The notes beneath the pieces were generated by a model that saw nothing but the letters and a program-made list of their open reading frames with translations, searched no databases and was not told the origin of the DNA. From Candidatus Methanomethylophilaceae archaeon (GTDB lineage: Archaea; Thermoplasmatota; Thermoplasmata; Methanomassiliicoccales; Methanomethylophilaceae), in NCBI GenBank assembly GCA_050950505.1, contig JBMNHS010000001.1, positions 160,001 through 224,000 of the forward strand: DNA of 64,000 nt, read 5' to 3'. Below, in pieces: positions 23,481-61,113 of the stretch. The position numbers and the translations under genes are program-made. Numbering within the stretch: position 1 is the first letter of the stretch; each line of letters starts with the position of its first letter.

Positions 23481-23484
23481 ATCG

Positions 23485-39190: not shown

Positions 39191-39298
39191 ATAATCCAAT
39201 AAGCGTTTGATATACAAATAGCATTTTATGGAATTTTATGGACAATTAAACAGTTATATTGAGTTATCATTGTAAAATATGCGACGAGCCGTGAAACA

Positions 39299-40504: not shown

Positions 40505-40511
40505 TGAATAA

Positions 40512-41285
40512 TCAGACCTCGCCCGTGGACCGTTTCGGAAGAACGTACAATTCACCGTCGATGTCCGTGCCCACCCTGGCTTCCACTTCGTACACCTCCC
40601 GCATGAGGTCCTCGGTGATTATTTCGCTCGGAACTCCGGAAGTGACAATCTTCCCCTGTTTCATTATGAAACAGTAATCGCAGTACCTCGATACCAGAGA
40701 TATGTCGTGTTCCGCGACCAACAGCGTCATGCCCGTTTTGGCCAGTGATCTCAAATGTTCCATCACGTTCAGTTTGAACTTAAGATCCAAATGGGATGTT
40801 GGTTCGTCCACCAGCAACAATTCGGGTTCCTGGACGTAGGCTTTCGCTATCAGAGCCCTTTGCCGTTCGCCGCTGGAAAGCATCGAAACCTGTTTTTTCC
40901 TATGCTCGTATATTCCGAATTTCTTCAATGCATTTCTTATGATTACTTCGTCCTCATCGGTTTCCCACCACAGTTTTTCAACATAGGGATACCGTCCCAG
41001 CATAACCATGTCCGTGACGGACATGTTCTGTATCTGTTCAATTTCCGCGGGAACGGTCGCTACCATTTTGGAAGTTTCGTGAGCATTGGTTTTCAGTATG
41101 TCCCGTCCGTTGACGGAGATTTTGCCGGCGGTTACATTGTGTATCTTCGACACACATTTCATAAGAGTGGATTTACCGCATCCGTTCGGACCTATGAGTC
41201 CGACCATCTGCCCCTCCCTTATCTCCAAATCAATATTGTCCAAAGCGCGGAAGGTTCCGAAATCCTTGCAGAGACCTTCCACCAA
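40512..41285 (-). CDS. ABC transporter ATP-binding protein (cobalamin/Fe-chelate, BtuD-like)
   Basis: GPNGCGKST, LSSGERQR, LLVDEPTSHLD, EHD. Confidence 0.92.
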   Translation of the reverse strand: MVEGLCKDFGTFRALDNIDLEIREGQMVGLIGPNGCGKSTLMKCVSKIHNVTAGKISVNGRDILKTNAHETSKMVATVPAEIEQIQNMSVTDMVMLGRYPYVEKLWWETDEDEVIIRNALKKFGIYEHRKKQVSMLSSGERQRALIAKAYVQEPELLLVDEPTSHLDLKFKLNVMEHLRSLAKTGMTLLVAEHDISLVSRYCDYCFIMKQGKIVTSGVPSEIITEDLMREVYEVEARVGTDIDGELYVLPKRSTGEV

Positions 41286-41295
41286 AAGACAGACG

Positions 41296-42396
41296 TCACC
41301 CTTTATACGACCGCCCCCTGGACATCAGCATGTATGCGAATATCGGCGTGCCGATTATGGCTGTAATCGCTCCAACGGGCAATTCCATGGGCATGAGCAC
41401 CGTTCTGGCAATTATGTCCGAAAACAGCATGAGCATTGCCCCCAGCACGATGCTCGCAGGCATTATCAGCCGGTGATCGCTTCCGAGTGCCATTCTGCAG
41501 GCATGGGGAATTATCAGACCGACAAATCCTATGACTCCGCAGAACGCGACACACAGGGCGGTGAGAACCGAGGCGATTATCATCATCAGTCTTTTGAACC
41601 GCTTGGTGTTAAGTCCCAATTGTTTCGCCTGTTCCTCGCCCAAGGAGAACAGATTGAATTCCCTCGCCCAAAGCATGGCCATCAAAGATATGCCCAGAGT
41701 GGGCACCAACACCAACAGGGCGTTCTCCCAGGTTATGTTTGCGAAGGAACCGAACATCCACCACATCGCATTGGAAATGTTGTCTTTTGCGAGAGACAGG
41801 AATATGGTCTGCACGGAAGAAAAGGCAAACCCCACGATTACCCCCGCCAGGATGTAATTGGTCGGAGTGCCTCCCGCACCTTCGGCGACAGTCATCGTAA
41901 GCGCGAATGCCAGAAGCCCCCCTATTATCGCGGCGACGGGAATTATGTACAGTTCGTTGTTGCCCAGAAACGGCAGCGTTGTACCCAAGGCGATAACTGA
42001 AATGGCCAAACAGCCCGCACCCGAAGAAACCCCTGTGATGTAAGGATCCACGAGAGGGTTTCTTATCAATGCCTGGTACATGCACCCCGCCACCGAAAGT
42101 CCGGCACCCACACCGATTGCCGCCAGGGCACGGGGCAGCCGGGCCCTGTAGATATACAGTTCTTCCGGGTTCAGATTTTCTCCGCCCTTCCTTATGGCGG
42201 AGAACATCGAAGATATCGCCTTATCCATGGAGATTATTCCTCCCGAGGATATTGAAATGGATATCAACAACGCGAATACCGACATCAGGATGCCGAAGGA
42301 CAGAATAAGAACGAATCTTTTCTTTTTTATTTTTATTTCACTTTCTTCCGCATCGTCTTTCGGCGGAAGATTCTTGGTTTTTTCCGAATCGTTCAT
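41296..42396 (-). CDS. ABC transporter permease (FecCD/BtuC family)
   Basis: RLPRAL, QALIRNPLVDPY.GVSSGA, GEEQAKQLG, IGFVGLIIPH, ELPVG. Confidence 0.93.
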   Translation of the reverse strand: MNDSEKTKNLPPKDDAEESEIKIKKKRFVLILSFGILMSVFALLISISISSGGIISMDKAISSMFSAIRKGGENLNPEELYIYRARLPRALAAIGVGAGLSVAGCMYQALIRNPLVDPYITGVSSGAGCLAISVIALGTTLPFLGNNELYIIPVAAIIGGLLAFALTMTVAEGAGGTPTNYILAGVIVGFAFSSVQTIFLSLAKDNISNAMWWMFGSFANITWENALLVLVPTLGISLMAMLWAREFNLFSLGEEQAKQLGLNTKRFKRLMMIIASVLTALCVAFCGVIGFVGLIIPHACRMALGSDHRLIMPASIVLGAMLMLFSDIIARTVLMPMELPVGAITAIIGTPIFAYMLMSRGRSYKG

Positions 42397-44066
42397 TTGC
42401 CGATCCTCCAGACCAAAACGGCTATCACAAGTATAGCCAGAACGGCAACCGTTGCCAATGCCGTGACTTTGAAATCTCCTCCGTCGGATTCCTCCGTCCG
42501 GATAGGTCCGGAGTCATAAAGACCGAAATCCGCCCAGCTGTCCCCGTATTCTTCGTAATATCCTATTTTGAATGAGGATTCGGTTTTGTCGAAGACCTTT
42601 TGTCCCAGATCCGGACGTTCGCCTTCGAACACCGCTTTTTTCAGAACGGCACAGCCGAAAAACGCATGATTTCCAACGGATTTCACCGATTCGGGAAGCG
42701 TTATTTCAACAAGGGATTCACAGGCCGTGAACGCACGTCTGCCTATGGACTCCAGAGAATTTCCGAAAGTTATGTTCTTCAGATTGCCGCATTCCGAAAA
42801 AGCGTATTCGCCGATGGAAATCAAGCCGTTCGGAAGATTGATTTTGACCAGCCGACTGCATTTGTCAAAACAGTGATTTCCCAACCGTTCCAAAGATTCC
42901 CCGAAGTTGACTTCCGTCAGACTCTCGCACTGATAAAAGGACCAATCCCCGATTGTTTTCACATTTTCGCCCAGAGTCACGGATTCCATGGATCTGCAGC
43001 TGTAGAATGTGCTGTGCTCCATCTCCGTGACGGAATCGGGAACCGTTGCTGTCTTGAGACTGCTGCAGTATCCGAAGACCCTCTCCGACAACAGTCCGAC
43101 GGTGTTGCTGATGTACAGGGTCTCTGCGCCGTTGCAGTCGTAGAACGCCCCGCCCTCGATGGTTTTCACGGAATCCGGTATGACTATGTCCTTGAATCCA
43201 TGGCACATTCTGAAGGATTCGAAACCGAGATATTCCAGTGTGTCCGGGAGTTCCACGTCTTCCATGACGTAACATTGTCTGAATGCTTCGTCATCGATGT
43301 GCATCACTCCCTTCGGTATATTTGCGGTTTTGAGTTTGTTGCAATCGTAAAAGGCACGGTCGGAAATCTTCACAATGTTCTTTCCGAGACTGAGAGAAGT
43401 GATTTCAACGGATTTGTCCCCGTATTTTTCTTCAAAAGCGCTCTGTCCTATCCGGGTAACGGGAATCCCTTCGATTTCATCCGGTATCTCAATCACGGTC
43501 CCGCTGATACGGTAATACACCGTAATTTCCCCTTCCAGGACAAGGTAATCGAAAGAACAGGTTTCACCGGTATAAATGCGGTAATCCATATTTTCCGTTG
43601 ATGCCGGCCATCCTTCCGATTGCATCGGAGACTTGTATACGGTGACATCCGTGTTCAGAAAAGTGTCATCCTCCGTTTCCGGGAAAGATCCCAAAAAATA
43701 CACCGAAAGGGTTCCGCAGCCTGAGAAGGCCTCATGTCCGATGTATCTGACATTCTTGGGAATTATGATTTTATCAATGGATGTGCAGTCTTTGAAAGAC
43801 TCGTCCCCCAGCTCCATCAGTTCATACCCTTCCACCGCGGAACGGAGATACACCGTACGGTCGTCACCCGGAGTGTATCTGAGAATTCTGCTGAAGCTGT
43901 CTTCCGTGTCCATGTAAGTTTCGTAACCGTATATCGCACCGTCGGGTGCAATCATTTCCAGACCGATTTCCGCGGCTTCGGCTTCATTCAAAGAAAATAA
44001 AGCTGATAATCCGCCCGATATCAAACAAACTGCCGTGATTAGTATTAGAGTGCGTTTTGAATCCAT
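42393..44066 (-). CDS. BspA-type leucine-rich repeat surface protein
   Basis: Signal peptide; many IGxxAFxxCxxL (LRR_5) repeats; C-terminal TM plus basic tail. Confidence 0.88.
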   Translation of the reverse strand: MDSKRTLILITAVCLISGGLSALFSLNEAEAAEIGLEMIAPDGAIYGYETYMDTEDSFSRILRYTPGDDRTVYLRSAVEGYELMELGDESFKDCTSIDKIIIPKNVRYIGHEAFSGCGTLSVYFLGSFPETEDDTFLNTDVTVYKSPMQSEGWPASTENMDYRIYTGETCSFDYLVLEGEITVYYRISGTVIEIPDEIEGIPVTRIGQSAFEEKYGDKSVEITSLSLGKNIVKISDRAFYDCNKLKTANIPKGVMHIDDEAFRQCYVMEDVELPDTLEYLGFESFRMCHGFKDIVIPDSVKTIEGGAFYDCNGAETLYISNTVGLLSERVFGYCSSLKTATVPDSVTEMEHSTFYSCRSMESVTLGENVKTIGDWSFYQCESLTEVNFGESLERLGNHCFDKCSRLVKINLPNGLISIGEYAFSECGNLKNITFGNSLESIGRRAFTACESLVEITLPESVKSVGNHAFFGCAVLKKAVFEGERPDLGQKVFDKTESSFKIGYYEEYGDSWADFGLYDSGPIRTEESDGGDFKVTALATVAVLAILVIAVLVWRIGK

Positions 44067-44067
44067 T

Positions 44068-45891
44068 TCAGACTCTCCTGTACAGTATTATGAAACTTGC
44101 CAATGAGGTTGTGAACAAAATCGTGAAAAGATACCAGGACCAGTGGTTGAAACCCGTGGACACCAGAACCGGCCCGGTTTCGTAATCGTCCTGACCTGCC
44201 CCCGGTATGTTGGAAAGACAGTAAACGGCTCCGTAATCGTTGCCCGCATAGATCTTTCCGTTTATCACCGTGGGCTGCACCATTGAGTATGACACACTGG
44301 ACGTCGGCGTCAGCAGCATTCTCCAATTTTCTTCACCGGTTTCCGCGTTCAGGGATGTGAGGCATCCCCCGGTGGGATACATCGTACCCGTGGAGTAATC
44401 CATGAAGTACACACATCCCCCCGCAAGGGTCAACGGAGATTTTATCCAGGACGGGCTGTTGTATTTCCAGACCGGGTTCCCTTCCCAATCAATAAGATAT
44501 ACCCCGGAGGCCCAATCGCCGTCGGGTACTTTGTTTACATAAACGTAAATTCCTTCCTCGGACACCGTGGGTTCGCAGGACCAGGCGGCGATTCTGTTGA
44601 GTTCGTCTCCGGTTTCCGCATCCAAATACAGTATGTGCCCCTGTCTGGGGGATAATGCGCCGTCTGTGCAAGATACAACCAGAATGTCGCGGGAACCGTT
44701 ATTTCCCAAAGCCATGTGGCCGGAGGAACCTGGAGTTCCTTCTTCAAGAATGTTGTTTCCCATCAGACGTATCGCTTCAAGTTCCCATATCTGTTCTCCC
44801 GTCAAGGCGTCCAGCGCATGGACGTAACCGCTGTAGCCTCCGATGAACAGCATGCTTTTGCCGTTGACGGAGCCGAGTATAGGGGCGTGATAATAGTAAC
44901 ACCCTCTGGCTTCGCCGGTCGGAACGTGTTCCCACAGTATGTCGCACCCTTCCCTTGATACGGATGCACATACTGTTTTTCCGTCATCGGTGCCGAAATA
45001 TATCGCGCCTCTGAAATAAACCGGGGTCGTCGCTCCCGTCACAAAGGTGCGTCCATCCCAATCCGGTGCCGACTCCCCGTCGGATACGGGGGGATCGTAA
45101 GGCAGGGTTTCCGTCCACAGCAGATCCCCGGTCACGCAGTCCAATCCGTATATGTCTCTGTTGGATGCCGTGAGAACAATCATGTCGCCCACGATTGCCG
45201 GGGTGGAAACCTCATAACCTATGCTGCCCGCATAAGAGAAACTCCAGATTTCCTTGCCGGTGTCCGTGTCTATGCAGTGAAGAGCAGGCCTGAAATCAGG
45301 ATCCCAGTGGCCGTCAGAGGTATGATACAGCCTGTTTTCTGAGACTAACAATCCTGAATCCACGTAACCGTTGTCCGAATACGTCCTGTACCATTCCACC
45401 GGGGATGCGGGTTCTTCCAAGGGAGGGGAATCCGACGTTCCCGCGGCATCGGCCGCACCTCTGTACATGGTCCACGAATCTTTGTGGGAAGGGGTTTCGG
45501 AAGGATGCAGCCCTTCGGGATAGAATCCCCACGCAAAGGAGCCTCCTCCGTAGGTGCCGTCAGAATCGCAGACCGTCCATCCGTTATCGGAATAACTGTA
45601 AAACGTCCAGCTCACGGTTCTGCCGGGCAGAGTGATGTTTTCGATTCCGTTTATCGTTGCTTCGGATCCGGTTTTCATGAATTCCATGTTTGCCGAGGCC
45701 GCGCAGCTTTCCGACACTTCCGCATATGAACCGGTCGAGTTTATTTCGGTCCATACCGTATGTCCGTCACCCATGTCGAACAGCATGAAATCTTCACTCT
45801 GTCCGGGTTCCGAGGAATAAGATACCGGCATCACGAACAATGCCGAAAGGAAAAACATCGCAGATATCAGGCAAAGGGCGGTTTTACGCAA
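44068..45891 (-). CDS. PQQ-like beta-propeller surface protein with N-terminal DUF4430-like domain
   Basis: Signal peptide; WTMYRG; repeated xDxxTGxxxW blades; C-terminal TM-YRRV; TTG start after GGAGGTGA. Confidence 0.8.
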   Translation of the reverse strand: MRKTALCLISAMFFLSALFVMPVSYSSEPGQSEDFMLFDMGDGHTVWTEINSTGSYAEVSESCAASANMEFMKTGSEATINGIENITLPGRTVSWTFYSYSDNGWTVCDSDGTYGGGSFAWGFYPEGLHPSETPSHKDSWTMYRGAADAAGTSDSPPLEEPASPVEWYRTYSDNGYVDSGLLVSENRLYHTSDGHWDPDFRPALHCIDTDTGKEIWSFSYAGSIGYEVSTPAIVGDMIVLTASNRDIYGLDCVTGDLLWTETLPYDPPVSDGESAPDWDGRTFVTGATTPVYFRGAIYFGTDDGKTVCASVSREGCDILWEHVPTGEARGCYYYHAPILGSVNGKSMLFIGGYSGYVHALDALTGEQIWELEAIRLMGNNILEEGTPGSSGHMALGNNGSRDILVVSCTDGALSPRQGHILYLDAETGDELNRIAAWSCEPTVSEEGIYVYVNKVPDGDWASGVYLIDWEGNPVWKYNSPSWIKSPLTLAGGCVYFMDYSTGTMYPTGGCLTSLNAETGEENWRMLLTPTSSVSYSMVQPTVINGKIYAGNDYGAVYCLSNIPGAGQDDYETGPVLVSTGFNHWSWYLFTILFTTSLASFIILYRRV

Positions 45892-47281
45892 ACACGTCAC
45901 CTCCCTGATGTTTGAGATACTTCTGATAATCATCGCCGAGATATTTCGGAACCGAGTCCAAGGGATCGTCCAGTGTGAACTGGGAACTGTGAATCATTTT
46001 TCCAAGAAGTTCCACTGCCTCGCCTATTCTGGGCCCGGGTCTTGAAAAGATGTCCGCGGTTTTGCCGGTCAGCATGTATACGTTACCGTCACGGAAAGCG
46101 GGAGTGTCTTTCCACATGGGATCGAGACTGTTCAGCATTTCCAGGTAATCCTCCATCGTCGCGTCGGCTCTTTCGTTAATTATTATCATACATTGGGGAC
46201 GTTTGTTGTTTATCCACTCCTTCGATACCATGAACCAGGAAGAATCCTGGGACGCGAAGATGTTGGAAGAGGTCACCGTTTCGATTATATCGTTCATGAA
46301 TGTGTCCCGTCCCGACGTCCACGGAGTGGGTATGGGCGATAATGCGACGAACACCGATTTCTCCGAAGTGTTGCCTATCTTGGCCCGGACGTTGGAAATC
46401 GTCATTTCTATTTTTTCGATCACAGAACCCGCGTTCTCTTCCAAACCCATCGATGCGGCCACAATCCAGATGTTCCGGTAAACCGACTCTATGGATTTTG
46501 AGTCGTAAAGCACAACGCAGTCTATGCCGGATTTCATGAGCCTGTCGGCCATGGACACATGTTGCCCCGCACCGGCGTCACAGAACACCAAATCGGGCTG
46601 TAACCGGACTATCCACTCGTAGTTCGGGTCTATGTATCCGCCTATCTCTATCAGAGAACCGTCTTTTTTCCGTTCGGTCACGGAATCCGGACAGTCGCTG
46701 TACCTGTCGACACCGACAAGATATTCGACACCGCCCACGGATGCGATGATTTCGGTCAGGGAAGGGGCCAAAGACACCACCTTCAACGGATTCCCCGTCT
46801 GTTTCGATATTCCGCCCGTAGCGTATCTGTAGTACGTGCCTCCCGAATGGTCCGTTCCCGGCATTACCTCCGAAGGGTCATCGGTTCTTGCCCAGCACGT
46901 CAGTCTGTAATCCGATGCCTTTATTTCTGAAGGATTTTCCTCCGTCGCCGACCATTTGGATTTGTCGGTGTCCATGGTGAAAAGGGTCCAAGGTCTGTCC
47001 GGAAGCGAGTGCTGTTCGTTTATCTGCAGGACCGTTTCGTTGTCGGAGTCGGTGCTGAAACTGTACCCGTTGATGTGACACGCTTCGCTGAGGACTTCGA
47101 TGCAGTTCCGGTCTCCGAGACTCAACGGAACCCATTTCACGTCATAGAACCCGAAGTCTATCATCACTCCTTCGCTGTCATCCTTTTCGGAAACCGTCAG
47201 GCCGATCATCGGAAAAGACGCGATGACCACCAACACTATCGTCACTGAAACTCCGAGCTTCAACGCGGTCGGCCTGAACAT
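45884..47281 (-). CDS. ABC substrate-binding protein (BtuF-like) with N-terminal DUF4430-like domain
   Basis: KVVSLAPSLTEI, LVGVDRYSD, PNYEWIV.LQPDLV, SRPGPRI. Confidence 0.88.
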   Translation of the reverse strand: MFRPTALKLGVSVTIVLVVIASFPMIGLTVSEKDDSEGVMIDFGFYDVKWVPLSLGDRNCIEVLSEACHINGYSFSTDSDNETVLQINEQHSLPDRPWTLFTMDTDKSKWSATEENPSEIKASDYRLTCWARTDDPSEVMPGTDHSGGTYYRYATGGISKQTGNPLKVVSLAPSLTEIIASVGGVEYLVGVDRYSDCPDSVTERKKDGSLIEIGGYIDPNYEWIVRLQPDLVFCDAGAGQHVSMADRLMKSGIDCVVLYDSKSIESVYRNIWIVAASMGLEENAGSVIEKIEMTISNVRAKIGNTSEKSVFVALSPIPTPWTSGRDTFMNDIIETVTSSNIFASQDSSWFMVSKEWINNKRPQCMIIINERADATMEDYLEMLNSLDPMWKDTPAFRDGNVYMLTGKTADIFSRPGPRIGEAVELLGKMIHSSQFTLDDPLDSVPKYLGDDYQKYLKHQGGDVFA

Positions 47282-47287
47282 GTTCCA

Positions 47288-48610
47288 TCACACTGTCGTC
47301 CAGGGATTTTTTGCGTCATCCGGTGTCAGATTGGGATCGCCTACCCAGTCCGAATTGTTGGGTGTGTTGCAATAAATCACCGCGAAATACGGATTGGATA
47401 CATAGGAATAGTATCCGCTCGTCCACTGATTAAATTCCCATTCTTCCTTTTTGAAGTTCCAGTTGAACTGTGCGGGATAATCCCAGGATTCATCGGCGGA
47501 ATGATAGATTCCGTTGCTGTACAATCCGAAGAAGTAGAATATCCAGCCTCTCAAATCGTTTCCTCCGACAATGGCTTCCGAAGCAATGTAGTCCCAGCCC
47601 ATCTCACTGAAGATTTTCTCAAGAGCCTCGTCAGCGGTGGATGCGGTGGTTTGAACCCAGATTCCTTCCACAAGTTCATCCCTGGTAAGACCGGGGGCAT
47701 CGTTTTCGAAATTGACCAGATCAACGAAGTCTTCCGATATTTGCAGGAATATGTAGAAGTCCCCTTTGGGCTTGTACATGACTCCGTCGTCCATGTATGC
47801 AGGTTCTTCGTATTCGCCGTCGGCAATGGGCACTATGGCAAAGTTCGCCCGGTCCCTCAAGAAGAATTTATCGTCCGTGAGCTGAACTTTCTCCCATTTG
47901 TCATCTCTTATCAGATCTCTGGTGTACTCCCCGGTTTCCGGATCTTTGATTATTTTGAATTCCGTATGTTGATAAAGCAGAATATAACCGTCCGTGCTTG
48001 TGAGTTCGGTGCCGTCAACCATGATTTTACTGTCGGATTCGCTTACCGTGTGTCCCGCACCCTTCATAGCTTCGACAAAGATTGTTTTAGGGGTGGTCGA
48101 AAACACCTTCAGAGGTTCATCGGAACCGCCGACCTTCACATTCACGTAGAATCCGGGGTTGGTGTACCCTTGCGGATTGGTGGTGAATCTTTTTGCCATG
48201 GATATTCCGAAAGCTGAATTGTCTTTCAGATCCAGGACTTCTCCGGATTCGTAAATGGAAGTTATGACTTTCCATTCAGTATCCCATTTCCAGATTACCC
48301 AGACTTTTCCTTCGTCCGCTTTCTTTCCGTCCACGGAGTGTATGGAACCGTCGTTGTCGAAGGTCAGCCCGTATCCCATGTCTTCCATCCCGTCAATCAG
48401 GATGTCTCGGATGTTGTATCCCTTGATGCGGGTTTCATCGACGTTCCCGTCGCCCGAATCGAAACAGACCGAAACGGAGCATTCTTCGCTTGTATTGTAT
48501 ATGTGCTGGTTTGTTGCCGATGTTCCGCTCAGTGACGAAAACACCGCAACACCGCTGATAAGCAATACCATCGCCGCCACTGCGGCAATCAAAGTATTTT
48601 TTGAAATCAT
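47288..48610 (-). CDS. Secreted or membrane-anchored protein with repeated DUF4430-like domains
   Basis: N-terminal hydrophobic segment; about three modules such as GSIHSVDG..VWVIWKW and GWIFYFFG..W. Confidence 0.65.
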   Translation of the reverse strand: MISKNTLIAAVAAMVLLISGVAVFSSLSGTSATNQHIYNTSEECSVSVCFDSGDGNVDETRIKGYNIRDILIDGMEDMGYGLTFDNDGSIHSVDGKKADEGKVWVIWKWDTEWKVITSIYESGEVLDLKDNSAFGISMAKRFTTNPQGYTNPGFYVNVKVGGSDEPLKVFSTTPKTIFVEAMKGAGHTVSESDSKIMVDGTELTSTDGYILLYQHTEFKIIKDPETGEYTRDLIRDDKWEKVQLTDDKFFLRDRANFAIVPIADGEYEEPAYMDDGVMYKPKGDFYIFLQISEDFVDLVNFENDAPGLTRDELVEGIWVQTTASTADEALEKIFSEMGWDYIASEAIVGGNDLRGWIFYFFGLYSNGIYHSADESWDYPAQFNWNFKKEEWEFNQWTSGYYSYVSNPYFAVIYCNTPNNSDWVGDPNLTPDDAKNPWTTV

Positions 48611-48612
48611 TT

Positions 48613-50169: not shown

Positions 50170-50170
50170 A

Positions 50171-51472
50171 TCAGACCCTCCTCTTGAAAATCAATGCGGC
50201 CGCTACCAGTACGATTACTCCCGCAATCGGCAGTACAAATTTCATTTCGAAATTGCCGCCGTTGTTTCCGTTACCGGGATCCGCGGATCCTCCCCCTTCT
50301 CCGGGACCTTCGGGGTCGACCACGGGGGGTGTCGGTATCACGGTTTCCGAATAGGTTGCGTACACCACCCGGTCTTCGGTCACGTTAATAAGATTATCTT
50401 CAGGGGACCAACCGGAGAAAGTGTACTTTATGTTTCCCGACTGGGCTTTTGTGGGGATTGTCGAGAAAGATGCGTTTTCACCGTCGACGACGTTCACGGT
50501 GCCGATGACGGTTGTTTCATCATCGTCCATGAACGTGACTTTATGCAGTGACGTGCTTCCTTCTTCAACAACAGTCACTTTGCACAGGGGTGACGTCGTG
50601 TTTGCGGTATCACTGAAATTTCTCAGTTCACCCCCCCAATCCACAATTATGTCGTTTATCAGAGCAGATATGTAGTATGTGCCGGGGGTATCAAAAGAAT
50701 AAGTGAAGTTACCGTTCGCGTCCGTGGTTATTTCGGATTCGGGCAGCTCCAAAAGGGAACCGGTCGGCACTTCCTCAAATATCAGTATCTCAGCGCCTTT
50801 GATTTTGGATACGGTCCCGGGGAAGGTGGGCGCCGCCATAAGTGACAGCGTCAGTTCTTCTTCCACTTCGGATTTGACGAAATCCTCCGAGAAATGAGCA
50901 AAAGCGCCTTCTTGATAGAAATTCCAATCCGTGAACATGGAAACTTCGACAATCATGTCGTTTTCCAACGGTATCTCATCGGAAGTCGCGCCGATACTTT
51001 CCGAATCAGGTTTCAGAGGGAATTTGTGATTCAGGAAATACATGAAATTCTCGTCATGACCCCAGAAGGTCTGGAAGTAGGATGAGCCTGCCGAACCTGT
51101 GAGGTTCATCGCATGGGTGTCATCATTGTTTACTATCTTCGTGCCCGGACAGTAGTATTCTTCCAAAGCCGTGATAAGAAGATGCAATACCGTGGGCACT
51201 TCCGCGATGTCTCCGTTTGCATCCGTATACTCATAATCACCCAACCAGTAATCTTCAAGAGGGAAATAGGAAACCGTTACCGGCACCAAAGCCATCACGG
51301 TATTTTCGGTATCGTTGCCTTTTACGAATTGTCCATCGCTCTGCAAAGTGAAATATGCCGTCACTGAATTGTCGTCTCCCAGTTCGGGATCGGCAAATGC
51401 CGCCGGGACCGATGTCAACAATATCACAATCAGTCCTGCGACCAATATTTTATTTTTGAATTTGTTCATCAT
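50171..51472 (-). CDS. Cell-surface protein (DUF4430-like plus Ig/InlB-like repeat)
   Basis: Signal peptide; PTVLHLLI..SYFQTFWGHD.NFMYFLN; YTFSGW repeat; Pro/Gly linker; TM-KRRV. Confidence 0.72.
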   Translation of the reverse strand: MMNKFKNKILVAGLIVILLTSVPAAFADPELGDDNSVTAYFTLQSDGQFVKGNDTENTVMALVPVTVSYFPLEDYWLGDYEYTDANGDIAEVPTVLHLLITALEEYYCPGTKIVNNDDTHAMNLTGSAGSSYFQTFWGHDENFMYFLNHKFPLKPDSESIGATSDEIPLENDMIVEVSMFTDWNFYQEGAFAHFSEDFVKSEVEEELTLSLMAAPTFPGTVSKIKGAEILIFEEVPTGSLLELPESEITTDANGNFTYSFDTPGTYYISALINDIIVDWGGELRNFSDTANTTSPLCKVTVVEEGSTSLHKVTFMDDDETTVIGTVNVVDGENASFSTIPTKAQSGNIKYTFSGWSPEDNLINVTEDRVVYATYSETVIPTPPVVDPEGPGEGGGSADPGNGNNGGNFEMKFVLPIAGVIVLVAAALIFKRRV

Positions 51473-51574
51473 TCGGATTCTCCTCCGATTTACGCACGTA
51501 CACATTTTTCGAACCGGTATTTCACCCCGGTTCGAAACGGTCCGTTCTGTTCGGAATGACTGAGTTTTATTGAT

Positions 51575-51603
51575 GTTATATATCAATGCCAGATTGGTTG
51601 GAT
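51575..51603 (-). promoter_or_regulatory. Promoter with ATCCAACCAAT box upstream of TATA (copy 1)
   Basis: Minus strand ATCCAACCAAT-ctg-GCAT-tga-TATATAA. Confidence 0.6.
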
Positions 51604-51771
51604 GTAATCTCTGTTTCGTAGGTAATTGCCCACATTATAAGGAAGAATACCGCATATGCAGCCAATCAGGTTTTCTGATGATACCGAATGCGTTCTCTTG
51701 ATTTTGAAATAAATAAAAAAGAGGTTAAGAGGTTTGTTTCGAGATTGGGGATCGTTTCCTTCAAAACGGAA

Positions 51772-54621
51772 TTATGCTCTCCTCCATATCAGGAACACTA
51801 CCGCAATCGCAAGCACAATGCCCGCGGCCAATATGATGACCGCATGCACCGAGCTGAAGACACCGTCGTCCTCCGCAGGAGGTTCCTCGGAAATTCCTTC
51901 CGCCAGCACGAATGTCGAACAGTGGGTCAGTCCGAAAGAAATCATGCCGCCGGACACCACCAGATTTTCGGCCTGCAACTCCAGCGCTCCGGTTTCTTCA
52001 TTGTAGAAGAACAGGTTCAGAACCGTTCCGTCTTCATATGTGTCGGACACACGGTAGGATATGACGGCGTTGTTGGGCAGTTCTCCGCTGGCGGCGAAGT
52101 TTAGCACCAACGGGTTCTCCATATCGAGTTTGCCGATTGCGGAGGTTATGGCTTCGCTGGATTCCGTTTTGGAAATTCCCAGTTTGAGGGTTCCGGCGTT
52201 TTCTTTGTATTCCCCGTCAAAGGACCAGGAATACTGAACCTCACCGTTGTCATCCAACACGTTTACGACCAGAGGTTTGTCAAGATCTTTGAACAGATTG
52301 TTGTTCAACACCGTATCCGTCGCTGAGCTCTTCACGTTCAGAACCGGGGTTTCCTCCTGTTCGATCAAATCCGCGAATTCGTCTTCCGACGGGAGATCCT
52401 CATAGATTATCGGAGTCCATACCGCGTAGAGAACCGTGTCGGATGTGACGACGTAAGGTTCGGCGACCAAGGCCCCTCCGGGGGTTAATGACCATCCTGC
52501 CAAAACGTGCGTCGCCTTCGATATGCCTTGTGTCGGCAATTCGAGTTCATCGCCGTCGGCCGCGAAGACGTCATCGATTGAACCTACGCCTCCGTTGGCA
52601 TCAAAGGTAACGCGGTTGCCCGTAACCGTCACTTCGCACCATGATATGGGGGCTCCGAAGACTTCGGCTATTATGCCGTATTCGTCCGCGACCGACTCAC
52701 GGTACGCACACACGTAGTATACTCCCGGTTCCGGGAAGGAGAACGTATAGACGTAGTCATCGCCGACCAGTGCCTCCGTGACAGCCAGTCCGGTCAATTC
52801 TGATATCTGAATGTTTTTGACCGGATTCACTGTGTAGTAGAAGGACAGACCTTCAAAGGTTATGGACGGCAGCCAATACGGTTTTTCGGGATTGGTGGGG
52901 ACAGTCAGCGAAATCTCTTCATCGAAACCCGCTTCGGTCTTCACTTTGTCGAAGGTCGTGAGCCCGTTTATGAAATAATTGAACAGATTCGCTTCCGCGT
53001 AACAGCCTTCTTCAATCGGTACTTCTGTGTGAAGGTCTTCTACCATCACCCCGTCAAGGAAGTATGTCATGTCGAAGAAATCAAAATCTTTGAACTCTAC
53101 ACCCCAAAACTTTGTGTTCCATCCGCTTGCGGAAAACACAAACAGGGAAGACACTTCGTCCGTTTCGAAAAAGTCCTCATGGGCTGCCACGAAAAGATGT
53201 GTGAGCGTTGCCCCTTCCGAGACGGTGCTGCACTGTTTCTTGCTGTATCCGTAAGGCTCCAGATCGAACCCGTTCTTGTTGAACGTGACCGTGTACGGAG
53301 ACGTGAAGATCAGGGAATCCTGCGATACGGAGAATTTAGCCGACATCATTTCAGCGGGGATTGCATCATATTCCGGACTCAAAGTTATGTTTTCGGTTAC
53401 GTTGGTAAATTCTCCCGACCATCCCAAGAATACATAGTCGTGAGTTCTGGATCTTTTACCGGGGGCGTCGGTCGGTGCCGATGCGTCCTCGCCGAGAGAC
53501 ACGGTTTCAGTGTAGTACACAGAGTCGTAGCCGTCAAGGAAAGTCACGGTGAAAGTGGGTATCACTTCTTCCGTGACCGCTTCGTATTCACAGTTTTCAG
53601 TCACCTCCGAGATGTCGGGAGTCCATCCGGTTATTATGTATTCATTGCCCGCATCGTCAACCCATCCCATGTCTCCCTTGTATTCGGGAATCAAACCTTC
53701 GCTGTAACACTCGTCGGTTTCAACCCCGTCAACCGACCATGTAATTTTGTACACGGACATTGACGCGGTTGCAGTCAACGATGGAATTCCGATGGGTTGA
53801 CAGATGGCCACTATATCGTAATCTCCGGGATTCAGATTCTTTTTCAGAACAGATACCGAAAAGGAACCGTCATTTTCCGAAATGCACATTCCCGATGCGA
53901 TTTTGGTGGTGCCGGACGTTATCTGAACTTCGACATTGGTGTTTCCGTAGTAGTTTCCGAAGGTCCCGGCAATGCCGAAGAGTTCATTGACGTACTCCGT
54001 TTTCGACAACGTGGCTTTGATGGTGACGATTACTGTGCATTCTGCTTCCAGATCGCCGATGGTGACTTTTATTTTGGCCTCGCCTTCGGATATTGCCGTG
54101 ATGTTGCCTTCATCGTCCACCGAAACCTTTGACGGATCCGAGGACGACCATATCATGGGATAGTGTACCGTCGCAGGAATGGTTTCAGCCTCTAATTTGA
54201 ATGAATTTCCTACAACAAGCACTTTTTCCGATACGTTCAGATTTATGGATTCGGTCTCAAAAACTTCCATCTGTTTCGATATAGTCACGGAAGGCTTTCC
54301 GACGGGGAGGCTGATTGCCACTATGTCGTATACACCCGCTTCCAATCCTTCTTTTTTGATGGAAACCGAGAAAAATCCGTTATTGTCCGTTATGCATATT
54401 CCCGAAACCACGGTGGTGGTTCCGGACATCACCCTCACTTCCGTATGGGAATCCGCATAGCCGATTTCAAAATGCCCCGACACATCGATTATGCCGTCGA
54501 AATAACTCGCATCGACGATTTCTGACGTGTCTCCGTCGGCGTTTGCAGGGGGTATCGCCATTACAAATACCGACGATAACATCGCTATGAGTATAATTGC
54601 GGCGATTTTCTTATTTTTCAA
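51772..54621 (-). CDS. Large cell-surface protein (Big_2, InlB-B-like repeats, DUF4430-like domain)
   Basis: Signal peptide; WSSSDPSKVSVD Big_2; VTFDANGG repeat; C-terminal TM-WRRA. Confidence 0.8.
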   Translation of the reverse strand: MKNKKIAAIILIAMLSSVFVMAIPPANADGDTSEIVDASYFDGIIDVSGHFEIGYADSHTEVRVMSGTTTVVSGICITDNNGFFSVSIKKEGLEAGVYDIVAISLPVGKPSVTISKQMEVFETESINLNVSEKVLVVGNSFKLEAETIPATVHYPMIWSSSDPSKVSVDDEGNITAISEGEAKIKVTIGDLEAECTVIVTIKATLSKTEYVNELFGIAGTFGNYYGNTNVEVQITSGTTKIASGMCISENDGSFSVSVLKKNLNPGDYDIVAICQPIGIPSLTATASMSVYKITWSVDGVETDECYSEGLIPEYKGDMGWVDDAGNEYIITGWTPDISEVTENCEYEAVTEEVIPTFTVTFLDGYDSVYYTETVSLGEDASAPTDAPGKRSRTHDYVFLGWSGEFTNVTENITLSPEYDAIPAEMMSAKFSVSQDSLIFTSPYTVTFNKNGFDLEPYGYSKKQCSTVSEGATLTHLFVAAHEDFFETDEVSSLFVFSASGWNTKFWGVEFKDFDFFDMTYFLDGVMVEDLHTEVPIEEGCYAEANLFNYFINGLTTFDKVKTEAGFDEEISLTVPTNPEKPYWLPSITFEGLSFYYTVNPVKNIQISELTGLAVTEALVGDDYVYTFSFPEPGVYYVCAYRESVADEYGIIAEVFGAPISWCEVTVTGNRVTFDANGGVGSIDDVFAADGDELELPTQGISKATHVLAGWSLTPGGALVAEPYVVTSDTVLYAVWTPIIYEDLPSEDEFADLIEQEETPVLNVKSSATDTVLNNNLFKDLDKPLVVNVLDDNGEVQYSWSFDGEYKENAGTLKLGISKTESSEAITSAIGKLDMENPLVLNFAASGELPNNAVISYRVSDTYEDGTVLNLFFYNEETGALELQAENLVVSGGMISFGLTHCSTFVLAEGISEEPPAEDDGVFSSVHAVIILAAGIVLAIAVVFLIWRRA

Positions 54622-54698
54622 TTTTTCACTTCCTTTGCTGATTTGTCATTTTCACTGAGATTGTTTCCTGTGTCACAATTTGACTTTATGAAAATTTT

Positions 54699-54732
54699 CC
54701 GGACAGGATTTCCTTTCGGGCGTCCTGTCCGG
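54699..54732. other. Strong intergenic hairpin (RNA stability or termination element)
   Basis: CCGGACAGGA...TCCTGTCCGG 10-bp perfect stem with inner GAAA loop on the minus strand. Confidence 0.55.
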
Positions 54733-54751
54733 GTTTATGTTTCTGAAACGC

Positions 54752-57700
54752 TCAGTCTGTCACACTCACCTCCTGCATTGTGCTTCCGTAGGTTATGGAC
54801 CCGCCGTCAAAGTCAGGCATGCCATCGTAAATGAGGGCGTACACCTTGACAGGAGTGTCCGTGTAAGAGAAGTCCAGTACGGACGAACCCACTCCGCGGT
54901 TGAGAACGATGTCGGAGTACACGTGCATGAACGTGTGATCGGAGTACTCCGTCCACACGCAGATTACGGGGTTGTCTATATTCTCGAAGTTCTTGCCTCC
55001 CATGCCTACCGTGACTTTAACAGTCAGCTGTTCGCCGTCAAGATTGAGTCCGAGCGATATACTGTATTCCTGTTCGTCGGTGCTTACTTCGTAAACGGGG
55101 AACAGTGTGACATCGGTCGTGATTCTTTCATACGGGATCATGGACACGGTTGCCAACGGATCGTCGGACCAGCCCTTGAACACATATCCGAGTATGCGCA
55201 TCCTTTCGTAGATGCGGGGATCCGGGTCGCTGACATTCTTCGAGCTTTCCTGCGTAACCTCGGCTACCGTATTACCAAAACTATCCTTATATGTTACAAT
55301 CAACGGCCTGTTGAACACTTTGTATTCCGGATTGGTGCCGTTGGCATATAGGTTGGAATCAAAGAATCTCTTTGTGAAACTCATAGTACCCATATTGGAC
55401 GCGGTTCTTTGCGTACCTGATTTGTTGATTCCGTCCGTACCTGTATTCTCAAGGAAGTAACAGGATTGGATTACACAGTCAGAACATATGTACGCAGACT
55501 TGGAAATATCGGAACAGGTCAGCAATCCGGTTGTGTAACATCCTTCTACTATTGCAGCGTTTGTTGCAATTCCGGATACGGCGGTTCCGGTGATGTTGCC
55601 CAAGTTGTAGGATGCGTAGACATAAGTCTTGCCGCCATACGCAGTACTGCTCAGACTGCCCATTATTCCCGCGGCATTGATGCCGTCAACGTCTCCCTTG
55701 TTGGCGCAGTACGACACTTCGGTGATGTACCCTCCGCCACAGATGCCGCCTGCGTTCTCGCCTTCCACTGTCCCTTCGAAGGTGCACCCGTGAATCTTGC
55801 TGTTCACGGACAATCCGACAATACCGCCTGCTCTCTTAGCAGAGAAGACGGTGGCGTAGGATGCGCAGTTCTTCACTTCGGAGTCGGTGATGCTTGAAAC
55901 TATGCCTCCGGCAAAGTTTTTGCTGAGCATGATTCCGTCCGTGGACAGGTTTGCTATGACGGTGCCGTTGTTGGCCACCGAAAATAATCCTGCATAATTG
56001 CTGGTGGATTCGTTGTAGATTCCCGAAACCATGTGGCCGTTTCCGTTGAAATAAACCCCGTTGCCCAAATCGATCGGCGTCCACGGTTTATAGTTCAGGT
56101 TGATATCCTGGCACAGCATAATGTTGGTACCCTTGACGGGTTTGTTCGCGGAGAACCATGCCAATTCGGAGGGCTTGTACACAAGATACGTACCGTTCCA
56201 TATTATGGGCTTTTCCCTCGTAACTCCGTCCCAGTACGGCCCGGAGGACTGTTCTCCCATGTCAACGGTTACCGTTTGTTCGTTGGTTTCGTTGGTAACG
56301 GAGAAGGAACCCGTCTTCATGGCATAACCGTCGGCAGTGACGACGTAATCGTAACTTCCGTAGGAGAGTTTGTACACTCCGTCCTCAGGCGCCATGACTT
56401 TGCCGTTTCCTGTCACAACAATGTCGGCGTTATCAACCGATACGTTGAACGACACATCGAAGGGTACTGCCTCCGTGATGCCCTCAATGACTATTTCCGG
56501 CAATACACCGAAATAAGCGTTGCGGGTCAGCGCGGTAAAGTTGGGCGGAAGTCCAACATGGGGATCTAAGTTTCTGTGGTTTCCGTATTCGTCACCGAAA
56601 CCTCCTTCGTTTATGATTCCCCTGGTCAACGTGAGCGTGTCCTTATCCCAATCCTCAGGAATCGTCACGGTAAAGGAATTCATACCCGCGAAACCGTAGT
56701 TTCCGAATCCTGAATAAAGTTTACCGATGGTGCCGATTTCGGATTCGTACAACAGCGTACAGCCCATATTGTAAATCGCGGCCAGCTTTATCGCGGGTTG
56801 GTAGAGGTTGCCTATGGTTACAGTTACGTTGTCACCGTATTTTATCGGAATACCGGGTCCTGCGGCGTTCTCTATCGTATAGGTCACGGGCTTTGCAGTC
56901 ATTACCTGATATTTTGTCTGACTTCCGTTGGTTATGGAAACTATGTTCCGTCCCTCGGTCAACGTTACGGTGAACGTGCCGTCTCCGTTATCCTTCGCGA
57001 CTCCATTTGTGAATCCGTCCACCATACGTTCTCCGATGATAGGGTTCAGAACCGAAACGGTACTGCCGCTCTCGGGTTCAAATGTGTATTTGAATCCGCC
57101 GGTGTCTTCAAGATAATAGAATACATCCAATTCGGAATCCACATAAATTCCCGACATTTTGTTATTGTTTCCGTTATAGGACTCGTTAACTTTCATTCCG
57201 GTTTCGAAATCAGGTCTGTCGTCACCGACGGTGACTACAAACACTCCGGTGTTTTCAGGCCACAGGGCACTGAAGAACAAAGCGGGAGTATTTCCCGAGG
57301 GGCCGAGAGTTATTCCGTCGTAGGTCACGAGCACGATTGCGGTTCCTTTCGAATCTGCACTGACTACGTAATGACCTATTGTCGAATCGAATACAATCGA
57401 AACGGTATCACTGGGTTTTCCGTCCATGCCGAGAACCGTGAAATATTTGTCCGGTTCAAAGAAATAGTTCGCAGTCACTCCGTGTTGCGCTTGGAACACT
57501 TTTGTAGCTATCAGAATGTGTTCATCGCCCACATCCATCATAAGGTGCCCCTCTGCGTTTATGTTCAAAAGTACATCCGCAACACCCATGCTGGACTGGG
57601 TGCCCGATAAATCTCGTACAATCGTATCTTTGCTTATATCGGATCCGTACCCCAAATCCTCCAGGGAGATTGCCAGATTCATATCCCCCTTGGCCATCGT

Positions 57701-59083
57701 GAAGTTGGTCGCATATGTTACATAATCGTCGCCACTCACTCTGTAATTGTACTGAGTGCCGCCGGCGAGACGGTATGTGTAGGTTGCGGTGAACCTTTTT
57801 TCATCCACGACGGGGGATCCGTTATGTTCGAATTCCAAATAGGGTATGTAGTGGTTGAATTTGTAACCGACAAACACATCGGCATCTTTCGGAACCGTAA
57901 TATTGAAGTCATAACCTATGTTAACAGCAACGTTTACGTTAAGATTTCCCGTATTGGTGTTGCTTCCCAGGGCGGGCAGATATCCCTCATTGGTTCTTAC
58001 CGAAGAGGGAACAAGCTTGTAGAATATCGTGCTACCGTAAGGGACGATGATTCTTGTGGCTTGATTACCGTCTATTTCGCCCGAGATTATCGGTGTATGG
58101 TCGCCGAAAGTAACTTCTACGGTGTAATCGACGCCGTTTTTCCAGTTGGCGTTATTGGATTTAACGGTACCGGCAACAACATTCAGTTCTCTGTTGCCTT
58201 CTCTGAGTTCAACTTCCAATTCCCCGAAAGACATTATGCGTGCGGCATCTTTGGGATCTGGACCTTCGACTTTGAGCGTCCATTTTCCATCAGGAACCGG
58301 GAATGTTTTGCTAAGTTTGGAAATAGTGGAAACGAGGAATACTTCATCGGAGTCGTCCGTCAGAGTGAATTTCGTTCCCGCCGTGGATTTGATCAAAATG
58401 AAATTGCCGTCATCGATGACGGATATGTCGCAAGATACGGATTTTTCTCCTACGGTTGCGGTTATCGCGGTTGTTCCTTTGCTTTTGGGAGTGACAAGTC
58501 CGCTTTCATTGATTTCGGCAACGGTTTTTTTGCTTGATTCATACACGACGGTGTCTCCAGCGGAGAATCCGAACTGAAGCTGCACCGGAACGTTGATGTC
58601 CACAGAAATCTTGTAGCCGTCCTCAACTTCGTAGGAAGGAGTGTCGACGGTCACTGTGCAAATTGCCGAAACATCATCATTCAACTTGACGGTGATTATT
58701 GCTTCACCCGCGGAATGTGCTTCCATATGCAACTGCTTGAGTGTGCCCCATTCGATAAAGGCTGTTACAACGCTCGGGTTGCTCGATACCGCAGTAGCGA
58801 CATCAGTGGTATTCGTTGGCGTCACGGTGAAATTGAAAAATGCTTTTTCACCTATATTCAGACTTTTCGAAGAAGTCAGATTTATACCCGTCGCCGGAAT
58901 TTCATCTATTAAGGCACTGTCTGCAAAGATTGTTCCGTCCTGCAGAAAATTGCCGTTTGCGGAGCCGTCGTCAAAATTATCCGACAGTCCCCACACGCCG
59001 GCACCCAATACTGCAAAGGGTCCGGCGATCATCATTAACGCAACCACGGTTGCGAGAAATTTTTCTTTTTTCATTGATGACAT
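54752..59083 (-). CDS. Very large secreted protein (2x Big_2, unknown core, GLUG/beta-helix region)
   Basis: Signal peptide; SSNPSVV and ESSKKTVA Big_2; WTPI..FNGNGH..AGGIVG GLUG repeats; 1443 aa. Confidence 0.8.
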   Translation of the reverse strand: MSSMKKEKFLATVVALMMIAGPFAVLGAGVWGLSDNFDDGSANGNFLQDGTIFADSALIDEIPATGINLTSSKSLNIGEKAFFNFTVTPTNTTDVATAVSSNPSVVTAFIEWGTLKQLHMEAHSAGEAIITVKLNDDVSAICTVTVDTPSYEVEDGYKISVDINVPVQLQFGFSAGDTVVYESSKKTVAEINESGLVTPKSKGTTAITATVGEKSVSCDISVIDDGNFILIKSTAGTKFTLTDDSDEVFLVSTISKLSKTFPVPDGKWTLKVEGPDPKDAARIMSFGELEVELREGNRELNVVAGTVKSNNANWKNGVDYTVEVTFGDHTPIISGEIDGNQATRIIVPYGSTIFYKLVPSSVRTNEGYLPALGSNTNTGNLNVNVAVNIGYDFNITVPKDADVFVGYKFNHYIPYLEFEHNGSPVVDEKRFTATYTYRLAGGTQYNYRVSGDDYVTYATNFTMAKGDMNLAISLEDLGYGSDISKDTIVRDLSGTQSSMGVADVLLNINAEGHLMMDVGDEHILIATKVFQAQHGVTANYFFEPDKYFTVLGMDGKPSDTVSIVFDSTIGHYVVSADSKGTAIVLVTYDGITLGPSGNTPALFFSALWPENTGVFVVTVGDDRPDFETGMKVNESYNGNNNKMSGIYVDSELDVFYYLEDTGGFKYTFEPESGSTVSVLNPIIGERMVDGFTNGVAKDNGDGTFTVTLTEGRNIVSITNGSQTKYQVMTAKPVTYTIENAAGPGIPIKYGDNVTVTIGNLYQPAIKLAAIYNMGCTLLYESEIGTIGKLYSGFGNYGFAGMNSFTVTIPEDWDKDTLTLTRGIINEGGFGDEYGNHRNLDPHVGLPPNFTALTRNAYFGVLPEIVIEGITEAVPFDVSFNVSVDNADIVVTGNGKVMAPEDGVYKLSYGSYDYVVTADGYAMKTGSFSVTNETNEQTVTVDMGEQSSGPYWDGVTREKPIIWNGTYLVYKPSELAWFSANKPVKGTNIMLCQDINLNYKPWTPIDLGNGVYFNGNGHMVSGIYNESTSNYAGLFSVANNGTVIANLSTDGIMLSKNFAGGIVSSITDSEVKNCASYATVFSAKRAGGIVGLSVNSKIHGCTFEGTVEGENAGGICGGGYITEVSYCANKGDVDGINAAGIMGSLSSTAYGGKTYVYASYNLGNITGTAVSGIATNAAIVEGCYTTGLLTCSDISKSAYICSDCVIQSCYFLENTGTDGINKSGTQRTASNMGTMSFTKRFFDSNLYANGTNPEYKVFNRPLIVTYKDSFGNTVAEVTQESSKNVSDPDPRIYERMRILGYVFKGWSDDPLATVSMIPYERITTDVTLFPVYEVSTDEQEYSISLGLNLDGEQLTVKVTVGMGGKNFENIDNPVICVWTEYSDHTFMHVYSDIVLNRGVGSSVLDFSYTDTPVKVYALIYDGMPDFDGGSITYGSTMQEVSVTD

Positions 59084-60856: not shown

Positions 60857-60879
60857 GTATACACCGTATTGCCTCTATA

Positions 60880-60968: not shown

Positions 60969-61113
60969 GTATCTATCCGATACAATGGGATCTGCGATGT
61001 GGTAAGTCACCGTTTTCAGTTCCTCATCATCCGGTTCTGTAATCGATTCATTATAGGTTTTGCAGAGATCTCCGGGATTGTTCACACGGACTTCAAGGCA
61101 TCAGACAAATTGT

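Follow-up and report, generated by a model that had tools for sequence, protein, structure and literature searches.

Does the run of ten genes at positions 40512-59083 of a 64-kb stretch of DNA from a Candidatus Methanomethylophilaceae archaeon (GCA_050950505.1, contig JBMNHS010000001.1; the whole stretch is hereafter the window) encode a surface system for capturing vitamin B12-like cofactors and, if so, which of the ten genes belong to it? Methanogenesis in the Methanomassiliicoccales runs through corrinoid-dependent methyltransferases, and the guts that they inhabit are places of competition for cobamides. An initial annotation had read the entire run as a multi-component surface apparatus that captures cobamides and passes them to an ABC importer. 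The observations behind that reading are borne out in part, and so is the interpretation. The importer, together with transcobalamin-like domains predicted from structural models, suggests a surface capture system for B12-like cofactors. The explanation that we prefer, with a probability of roughly 0.62, is a BtuFCD-type importer that takes up a corrinoid, either a cobamide or a precursor (cobinamide, for example), and is extended on the cell surface by beta-grasp domains of the transcobalamin-beta/SLBB kind.

Gene content and conservation of the core

The ten open reading frames (ORFs), numbered here from g1 (54752-59083) to g10 (40512-41285), all lie on the minus strand, confirming that the genes are co-oriented. 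A FecCD permease, an ABC ATPase and a Peripla_BP_2 protein are encoded together, so that the proposed BtuF/BtuC/BtuD-like importer is present as a BtuFCD-type (type II) set. Its binding protein, g6 (45884-47281), is a 465-amino-acid (aa) membrane-anchored substrate-binding protein. An N-terminal transmembrane segment (residues 1-33) leads into an N-terminal domain that is transcobalamin-beta-like by predicted fold (residues ~31-165; window 46787-47191), which is followed by a BtuF-like Peripla_BP_2 domain (residues 168-405; window 46067-46780; Pfam 3.7e-29). The permease, g9 (41296-42396), is of the FecCD/BtuC type (Pfam FecCD 1.1e-86), and the ATPase, g10, is BtuD/FecE-like (Pfam ABC_tran 1.9e-33). 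The product of g7 (44068-45933) carries a signal peptide, a module related to the g6 N-domain (residues ~45-140; window 45514-45801), a PQQ/BamB-like propeller (Pfam PQQ_2 4.2e-24) and a C-terminal transmembrane anchor. Judging from the alignment of homologues, its true start is probably ~14 codons downstream of the listed ATG.

We assessed conservation in 16 loci with a full-length fused binding protein (L001-L016), obtained by scanning one genome per species. The extra domain on the binding protein, already noticed in the initial annotation, is real and conserved: full-length relatives of g6 form 103 clusters (~460 aa, 43-93% identity, the named ones from Methanomassiliicoccales), each with the domain fused to the binding protein. 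A g7-like gene lies immediately 3' of the g6-like gene in 16/16 loci. Permease and ATPase genes follow directly after it in 14/16, the exceptions being L004, which stops at a contig edge, and L008, where the pair lies farther off, upstream. The g9 permease is 65-76% identical over 14 loci. In four cases (the second copy in L012, and L014, L015 and L016), module, propeller and FecCD permease form a single ORF of 945-1059 aa. Such a fusion fits the expected topology, because the propeller ends in a C-terminal helix that continues into the permease at its cytoplasmic N-terminus, and we regard the fusion as strong sequence-level evidence for a propeller acting at the transporter.

Two further genes accompany this arrangement in other loci. 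The product of g5 (47288-48610) is secreted or anchored and combines an N-terminal module of the g6/g7 kind (residues ~45-121) with a distinct C-terminal domain (residues ~280-420); a Pfam search of the whole protein matched no family. Most of the 16 loci encode proteins like it, just upstream of or near g6. The surface protein g4 (48613-50169) has a C-terminal transmembrane anchor and a weak propeller signature (Pfam PQQ_2 7e-4), so that one of the two propellers first proposed, that of g7, is clear and the other faint. In L001, L005 and L007, relatives of g4 (865-911 aa, propeller plus Flg_new) precede the g5-like gene. We conclude that g6, g7, g9 and g10 form the solid core, a BtuFCD-type importer coupled to transcobalamin-like domains; g5 and perhaps g4 often accompany it.

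Two details of the locus set deserve mention. L012 holds two copies of the system in divergent orientation (2139-15534), one with separate propeller and permease genes; in the other, the two are fused and an additional permease gene comes next. The record titles of L011, L013 and L002 read Faecalibacterium, Methanomicrobiales and Methanobacteriota, respectively, yet each of the three has the fused system of Methanomassiliicoccales type and falls in that clade of the tree; the titles are likely binning or labelling errors.

Sequence families and predicted fold of the modules

Five products (g2, g3, g5, g6 and g7) had been credited with one similar module resembling DUF4430 and transcobalamin beta-grasp domains. 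A profile of the g6 N-domain matched the N-termini of g7 homologues and of g5-like proteins, in register; first-pass E-values ranged from 8.9e-6 to 0.01 (in a small ORF set) and became much stronger after one iteration. Alignments of this family share an opening [LIV]-x-D-x-G...W and later W...W motifs. The modules of g6, g7 and the g5 N-terminus are thus one family, but that of g3 belongs to another, and g2 reached at best E=0.057 against the hidden Markov model (HMM) of the g3 family.

The g3 family comprises 431 representatives at 50% identity (E<=0.001), and its members often occur alongside fn3, Flg_new, Big_2 and dockerin domains. The C-terminal part of g5 (window 47288-48130) is a separate conserved domain that recurs in eight other proteins of the loci and may constitute a third family; its pattern (a helix, G-W-x-x-x-F-x-G, then W-x-Y-W...W) resembles those of the other modules. 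Profile-profile comparison (hhalign) of this g5 family gave 9.8% against the g6 N-domain family and 0.7% against the g3 family, neither significant. Pairwise BLAST among the modules returned nothing significant, and neither g5 nor g3 had a meaningful match in a PDB sequence search. Word-indexed homologue searches yielded four matches each for g5 (close relatives) and the g3 module. By sequence, the modules represent at least two, probably three, families without mutual relation.

Predicted structures bring two of these families together. The AlphaFold (AF2) model of the g6 N-domain, built from 54 sequences, had a predicted local distance difference test score (pLDDT) of 86.6 and a predicted template modelling score (pTM) of 0.82. 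When it was compared with the PDB by Foldseek, all 13 rows listed to rank 16 were transcobalamin, intrinsic factor or haptocorrin; the TM-score to the isolated transcobalamin beta domain (5no0/5np4) was 0.61-0.63, and the DUF4430 structure 3u7z appeared at rank 18. The model of the g3 module (residues 60-245; window 50852-51409) had a pLDDT of 90.8. Its Foldseek ranks 1-5 were haptocorrin or transcobalamin (E 0.017-0.25), and 3u7z matched with a TM-score of 0.58. The g6 N-domain and the g3 module are accordingly both predicted, from these models, to adopt a transcobalamin-beta-like (SLBB/DUF4430-like) beta-grasp fold. The point that we weigh most is that, as modelled, two families unrelated in sequence land on the same few B12 carriers as their best structural neighbours.

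The order of secondary structure elements assigned by DSSP is in keeping with this prediction. In the g6 N-domain, helix 30-41 is followed by strands 45-47 and 54-57, and in the g3 module helix 74-86 by strands 101-106 and 109-115. Read as secondary-structure order alone, both are consistent with the two-strand hairpin insert after the helix that marks the transcobalamin-like clade of SLBB domains. A language-model atlas returned clusters bearing PF14478 (DUF4430) among its three best for both g3 and g2, with scores that serve as leads only; for g2, the DUF4430 cluster was at rank 2 (0.84), likewise a lead.

Several results tell against a relationship of this kind. Neither the g6 N-domain nor the g3 module had a Foldseek match at E<=0.001 (best 3.8e-3 and 1.7e-2), and in both lists ubiquitin-like domains come next, the beta-grasp being a common fold. 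For these reasons the likeness to transcobalamin is a fold-level claim on predicted models. Pfam DUF4430 gave no match at E<=10 in seven module segments, nor in the whole proteins. Among 55 scanned relatives of the g3 module, no Pfam family covered the module region, and PF14478 was found in 0/55 at E<=0.01. The g3 and g6 N-domain families showed no profile-profile relation by hhalign (probability 0.13). The DUF4430/transcobalamin likeness of the initial annotation consequently stands for the predicted fold of the g6 N-domain and the g3 module but not for Pfam DUF4430 itself. Two other Pfam families surfaced on module segments at E<=10, DUF7723 (0.13) and Adeno_E3_CR1 (0.017), and were set aside as chance-level matches to unrelated families.

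Identity of the ligand

The initial annotation had named corrinoids as the ligand, and genome context makes this likely. Of the bacterial loci with the nearest relatives of the substrate-binding protein (SBP) that consist of the SBP part only, 33/46 (8/15, 6/7, 9/10, 5/7 and 5/7 by batch) have a cobalamin riboswitch (RF00174) ahead of the binding-protein gene and in the same orientation, often within 150-450 nucleotides (nt) of it. In a Desulfurococcaceae locus of the sister clade (L021, 9788-17292), genes for binding protein, permease and ATPase run on, on the same strand, into CobT, CbiS, CobY-like, CobD and CobS genes; on its gene content, this run is an archaeal cobinamide-salvage operon. 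The riboswitches of the nearest bacterial relatives and the salvage cluster of L021 together lead us to consider a corrinoid ligand likely. We rank a corrinoid as the most likely ligand by sequence-based evidence, with odds of about two to one in its favour when set against other tetrapyrroles or iron complexes.

The sequence of the binding domain itself speaks less directly. NCBIfam models scored 83 bits (TIGR04281), 75.8 (BtuF) and 57.6 (IsdE) on g6, all below their cut-offs, and the siderophore models FhuD, FepB and FecB gave 22-26 bits, far under BtuF. Going by these HMMs, the domain appears to group with BtuF and heme binders rather than with siderophore binders. BtuF residue Y50 aligned to the invariant Y194 of g6, and W66 to the nearly invariant Y216. 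We also built a tree of 85 binding domains, with BtuF, FhuD, FepB and ChuT from E. coli as references; in it, the fused family formed a single clade (100), with five Thermoproteota proteins as its sister (Shimodaira-Hasegawa-like approximate likelihood ratio test, 96).

A number of observations count against a corrinoid, and some of them suit a different cargo. No riboswitch and, elsewhere in the 64-kb window, no cobamide gene was found; 13/46 of the bacterial loci are likewise without a cobalamin riboswitch. All equivalog scores fall well short of their cut-offs (BtuF 75.8 against 234; BtuC, on g9, 218.7 against 334; corrinoid ATPase, on g10, 209 against 537), and 'F420-0 ABC' models score as well as or better than the Btu models on g9 and g10. 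Moreover, Methanomassiliicoccales largely encode anaerobic B12 synthesis, according to the available text of a 2024 survey (PMC10804542), and the paper that defined the SLBB superfamily cautions, in its accessible part, that archaeal SLBB proteins might scavenge another metabolite, with regard to those archaea that synthesise B12 (PMC1796856). The cargo of the transporter could be heme, a siderophore, F430 or a precursor, or more generally some other metal-tetrapyrrole or iron complex, which the transcobalamin-like domains would then bind in place of a corrinoid. The best solved relative of the g6 binding domain in a PDB sequence search, 4m7o (2.7e-22, ahead of E. coli BtuF at ~1e-14), was deposited as an 'iron-binding protein', and the heme binders 2r7a, 5khl and 3md9 were also matched. 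The IsdE score on g6 and the shortfall of every BtuF-type score point the same way. In the tree, ChuT (heme) is nested among the binding domains together with FepB, with BtuF outside; because these references are unseparated and sit on very long branches, the tree leaves the substrate undecided. A sister locus (L031, 3666-8365) has a CcmF/NrfE-like heme-lyase ORF of 956 aa, below cut-off, two genes upstream of the binding-protein gene. Finally, the available text of a preprint ascribes a role in heme uptake to the transcobalamin-like proteins of L. sakei (10.1101/864751).

We nevertheless hold such a cargo to be unlikely. Besides the riboswitches and the transition of the L021 transporter genes into cobinamide-salvage genes, the column of the ChuT 'GYW' tyrosine corresponds to G215 in g6 (in a weak alignment of ~20% identity); from work on ShuT and PhuT, we take this tyrosine to be a heme ligand. 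IsdE scores far under its cut-off (298.65) and also under BtuF. On these two marks, if weakly, g6 departs from the heme-binding SBPs of the ShuT/ChuT/PhuT and IsdE kinds. The low siderophore scores argue in the same direction. To our knowledge, Methanomassiliicoccales lack cytochromes.

Genes for tetrapyrrole-related proteins occur near two of the 16 loci and could be cited for a cargo other than a corrinoid. Each is a few kb away from the importer genes: a NifH/Oxidored_nitro fusion (CfbCD-like) in L005 (18193-20346), of a kind presumably used in F430 synthesis, and a CobN/Mg-chelatase fragment in L016 (20415-21281). Scanning 59/93 ORFs without window counterpart in the flanks of the 16 loci revealed no consistent cobamide gene.

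Extent of the system

How far does the corrinoid importer that we favour reach into the ten-gene run? The eight genes from g3 to g10 are tightly packed, with intergenic distances of -50 to +10 nt, in agreement with the overlaps and few-nt gaps first reported for most of the run, but g1 and g2 are 130 nt apart and g2 and g3 185 nt. The latter spacing grows to ~300 nt if g3 begins at residue 39, which is probably its true start, given an identical database record of 433 aa. An N-terminal hydrophobic segment is present in all eight proteins outside the transporter core (g2-g7 among them), and g2, g3, g4, g7 and g8 have a C-terminal one in addition, which makes a surface location plausible.

The outer genes encode surface proteins, with Big_2, Flg_new, Big_3_5 and GLUG domains found by Pfam in g1, g2 and g3. 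The 1443-aa product of g1 is adhesin-like (Big_2, GLUG, Flg_new); its position is not conserved, and co-location alone makes it a candidate member. The Big_2/Flg_new surface protein g2 (51772-54621) has a possible module at residues ~420-565 and a C-terminal transmembrane anchor. In g3 (50171-51586), the predicted beta-grasp module of the second family is combined with Ig-like domains and a C-terminal transmembrane anchor. Membership of g2 and g3 in the system is uncertain. Between g7 and g9 lies g8 (42393-44066), a surface protein with leucine-rich repeats (LRRs) of the BspA type (Pfam LRR_5 4.7e-94).

Their conservation speaks against a system of ten parts. Positional counterparts of g1, g2 and g3 were found in none of the 16 loci, and an LRR gene between propeller and permease in 0/16, the position of g8 being unique to the window. 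Because these four genes are not conserved beside the importer, a ten-gene apparatus is unsupported; what holds of the multi-component reading is the propeller linked to the importer, adjacent in 16/16 loci and fused in four, and the conserved synteny of the core. All four outer genes may be ordinary adhesin-like neighbours, and for g1 and g8 this is the more likely case.

A stricter view would confine the system to g6, g7, g9 and g10. Genes g1-g5 and g8 would then encode unrelated adhesin-like proteins, clustered as is usual in gut methanogen genomes; there would be no relay, and the beta-grasp domains would serve anchoring or protein contacts. The absence of positional counterparts agrees with this, as do the LRR, Big_2 and Flg_new genes scattered around many of the loci and the wider spacings at g1/g2 and g2/g3. 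The same can be said of the g3 module family, which in many proteins accompanies dockerin, fn3 and Flg_new domains and for which no transporter context is known to us, and of the three module families being unrelated by profile. Set against this are the g5-like proteins with a g6-type module that recur beside g6, the packing of g3-g10, the fusion of that module to the binding protein in all 103 relatives, and the B12 carriers found as best structural neighbours by two independent families. On balance, we find the stricter view doubtful.

The corrinoid importer with surface extensions may be pictured as follows. Membrane-anchored g6 would hold one beta-grasp domain ahead of its BtuF-like cleft, and g7 a related domain on a propeller whose C-terminal helix would anchor it beside the BtuC permease; in some lineages, a g7-type protein would be covalently part of the permease. 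Further capture domains on stalks might be added by g5 and perhaps by g4, g3 and g2. Ligand caught by the outer domains could then pass to the BtuF cleft and be imported by g9/g10. Gene content, conservation of g6-g7-g9-g10, the fusions, the predicted surface location and the predicted fold are directly supported by our data; we infer the corrinoid as ligand, its binding by the beta-grasp domains and the hand-over between them.

A bolder version would see here an archaeal counterpart of vertebrate transcobalamin and Bacteroides BtuG combined. In that case, domains of three unrelated transcobalamin-like families, carried on stalks, on the propeller and on the binding protein, would provide very tight capture that is selective for the lower ligand, and together with the LRR and Ig adhesins would permit contact-dependent piracy of cobamides from bacteria or from host B12 carriers. 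We regard this as quite improbable. The suggestion in the initial annotation that cobamides are stripped from other proteins or cells was not supported.

Neighbouring genes

Directly after the ATPase gene lies a gene for a 418-aa protein with repeated zinc ribbons (by Pfam) and a C-terminal alpha-helical region (39299-40555, minus strand). The protein is without a hydrophobic segment and hence cytoplasmic. A full-length zinc-ribbon gene stands 3' of the ATPase gene in 6/16 loci and a shorter ORF in 1/16; the protein could speculatively be a regulator and a member of the system. It is followed by a shorter paralogue (38618-39217, minus strand) and by a gene with a helix-turn-helix (HTH) and a DUF4443 domain (37917-38555, plus strand). 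The same three kinds of gene lie 3' of the transporter in L001, L002, L005 and L007, and the block at 37917-40555 may be a regulator block or merely conserved gene order.

Just upstream of g1 (59648-62400) are two AAA_14/DUF4143 ATPase genes, and a DUF4143-only ORF lies at 4166-5035; relatives adjoin the system in L014 and L015. The remainder of the window is housekeeping in character, including a ribosomal protein cluster, SecY and tRNA synthetases. Over the ribosomal protein/SecY cluster (8000-24000), G+C content is 0.52-0.57, above that of the rest, with a strongly negative AT skew.

Implications

Should corrinoids indeed be captured by the fused domain and by the propeller linked to the permease, the system would rank as the first multi-protein apparatus for B12 capture in archaea. 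It would represent an independent invention of the strategies embodied in Bacteroides BtuG/H/J and in vertebrate transcobalamin. The proteins g6, g7 and g5 are expressible targets for binding studies, and for starving gut and rumen methanogens of their cofactor. The locus further reveals at least two unnamed domain families that escape current Pfam models, one of them with 431 representatives, many in dockerin-bearing proteins.

Comparison with known systems

The transporter invites comparison with E. coli BtuCD-F, with which it shares a FecCD-type permease, an ABC ATPase and a class III (Peripla_BP_2) binding protein. It differs in that the binding protein is membrane-anchored and bears an extra N-terminal predicted beta-grasp domain of ~135 aa, and in that a propeller protein is linked to or fused with the permease; moreover, the window has no riboswitch, and scores lie far under the BtuF and BtuC equivalog cut-offs. 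Among archaea, BtuFCD is known in Halobacterium.

The added domains have their nearest precedent in the SLBB superfamily, defined by Burroughs et al. in 2007. As described in the available text of that paper, secreted transcobalamin-like members are fused to Ig domains or a propeller, and their genes often share an operon with a second paralogue and with CbiO/CbiQ transporter genes, from which scavenging of B12 was predicted (PMC1796856). Our modules resemble this clade and DUF4430 (3u7z) in the predicted strand-strand-helix-hairpin-strands order and in secreted or surface location. They also share, to the extent that the paper is accessible, Ig-like and propeller fusions, several paralogues per operon beside a transporter and the predicted scavenging of B12 or a precursor. 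The partner here is a BtuFCD-type importer, whereas in the systems that the accessible text describes it is CbiO/CbiQ, of the energy-coupling factor (ECF) type, and our modules match no DUF4430 HMM.

Closer in taxonomy is the 2024 survey, whose available text reports btuFCD to be widespread in Methanomassiliicoccales, with five clades of BtuC, and places btuFCD of strain LGM-RCC1 beside adhesin-like proteins as 'a specialized capture mechanism' (PMC10804542). The organism belongs to the same archaeal order, and the juxtaposition of btuFCD with adhesin-like genes is the same. The available text of the survey makes no mention of an extra domain on BtuF, a module-propeller protein, a fusion with BtuC or a transcobalamin-like fold. 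In the literature searched, we did not find the beta-grasp-BtuF and propeller-BtuC fusions described, although the supplements of both papers (PMC1796856; PMC10804542) may list related architectures. As far as their available text extends, the 2007 and 2024 papers partly anticipated the idea in print (PMC1796856; PMC10804542). The earlier statement that no archaeal equivalent has been characterised is therefore correct for experiments but not for predictions.

Bacteria offer a counterpart that has been worked out as a relay. In Bacteroides thetaiotaomicron, the parts of the published accounts available to us describe cobamides passing from BtuJ to BtuH/BtuG, on to BtuB and then to BtuFCD (PMC13616437; also PMC6143338, PMC10404256). 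The archaeal cluster differs in having no outer membrane to cross and no gene for a TonB-dependent BtuB, and is known from sequence and models alone. The link between its propeller and BtuG that had been proposed does not hold by sequence: a PDB search with g7 retrieved BamB/YfgL only (19 sequences), with no match to BtuG. Its binding modules are also of a different fold class from BtuH, to judge from the available description of the latter. We had considered BtuH as a DUF4430 protein and dropped this comparison, as the available text of the BtuH paper mentions neither DUF4430 nor transcobalamin. In overall design, the Bacteroides relay, as presented in the available text of these reports, is the closest working analogue of the system proposed here: a gut organism in competition for cobamides supplies a Btu importer through several surface binders, one of which is a propeller bound to the transporter.

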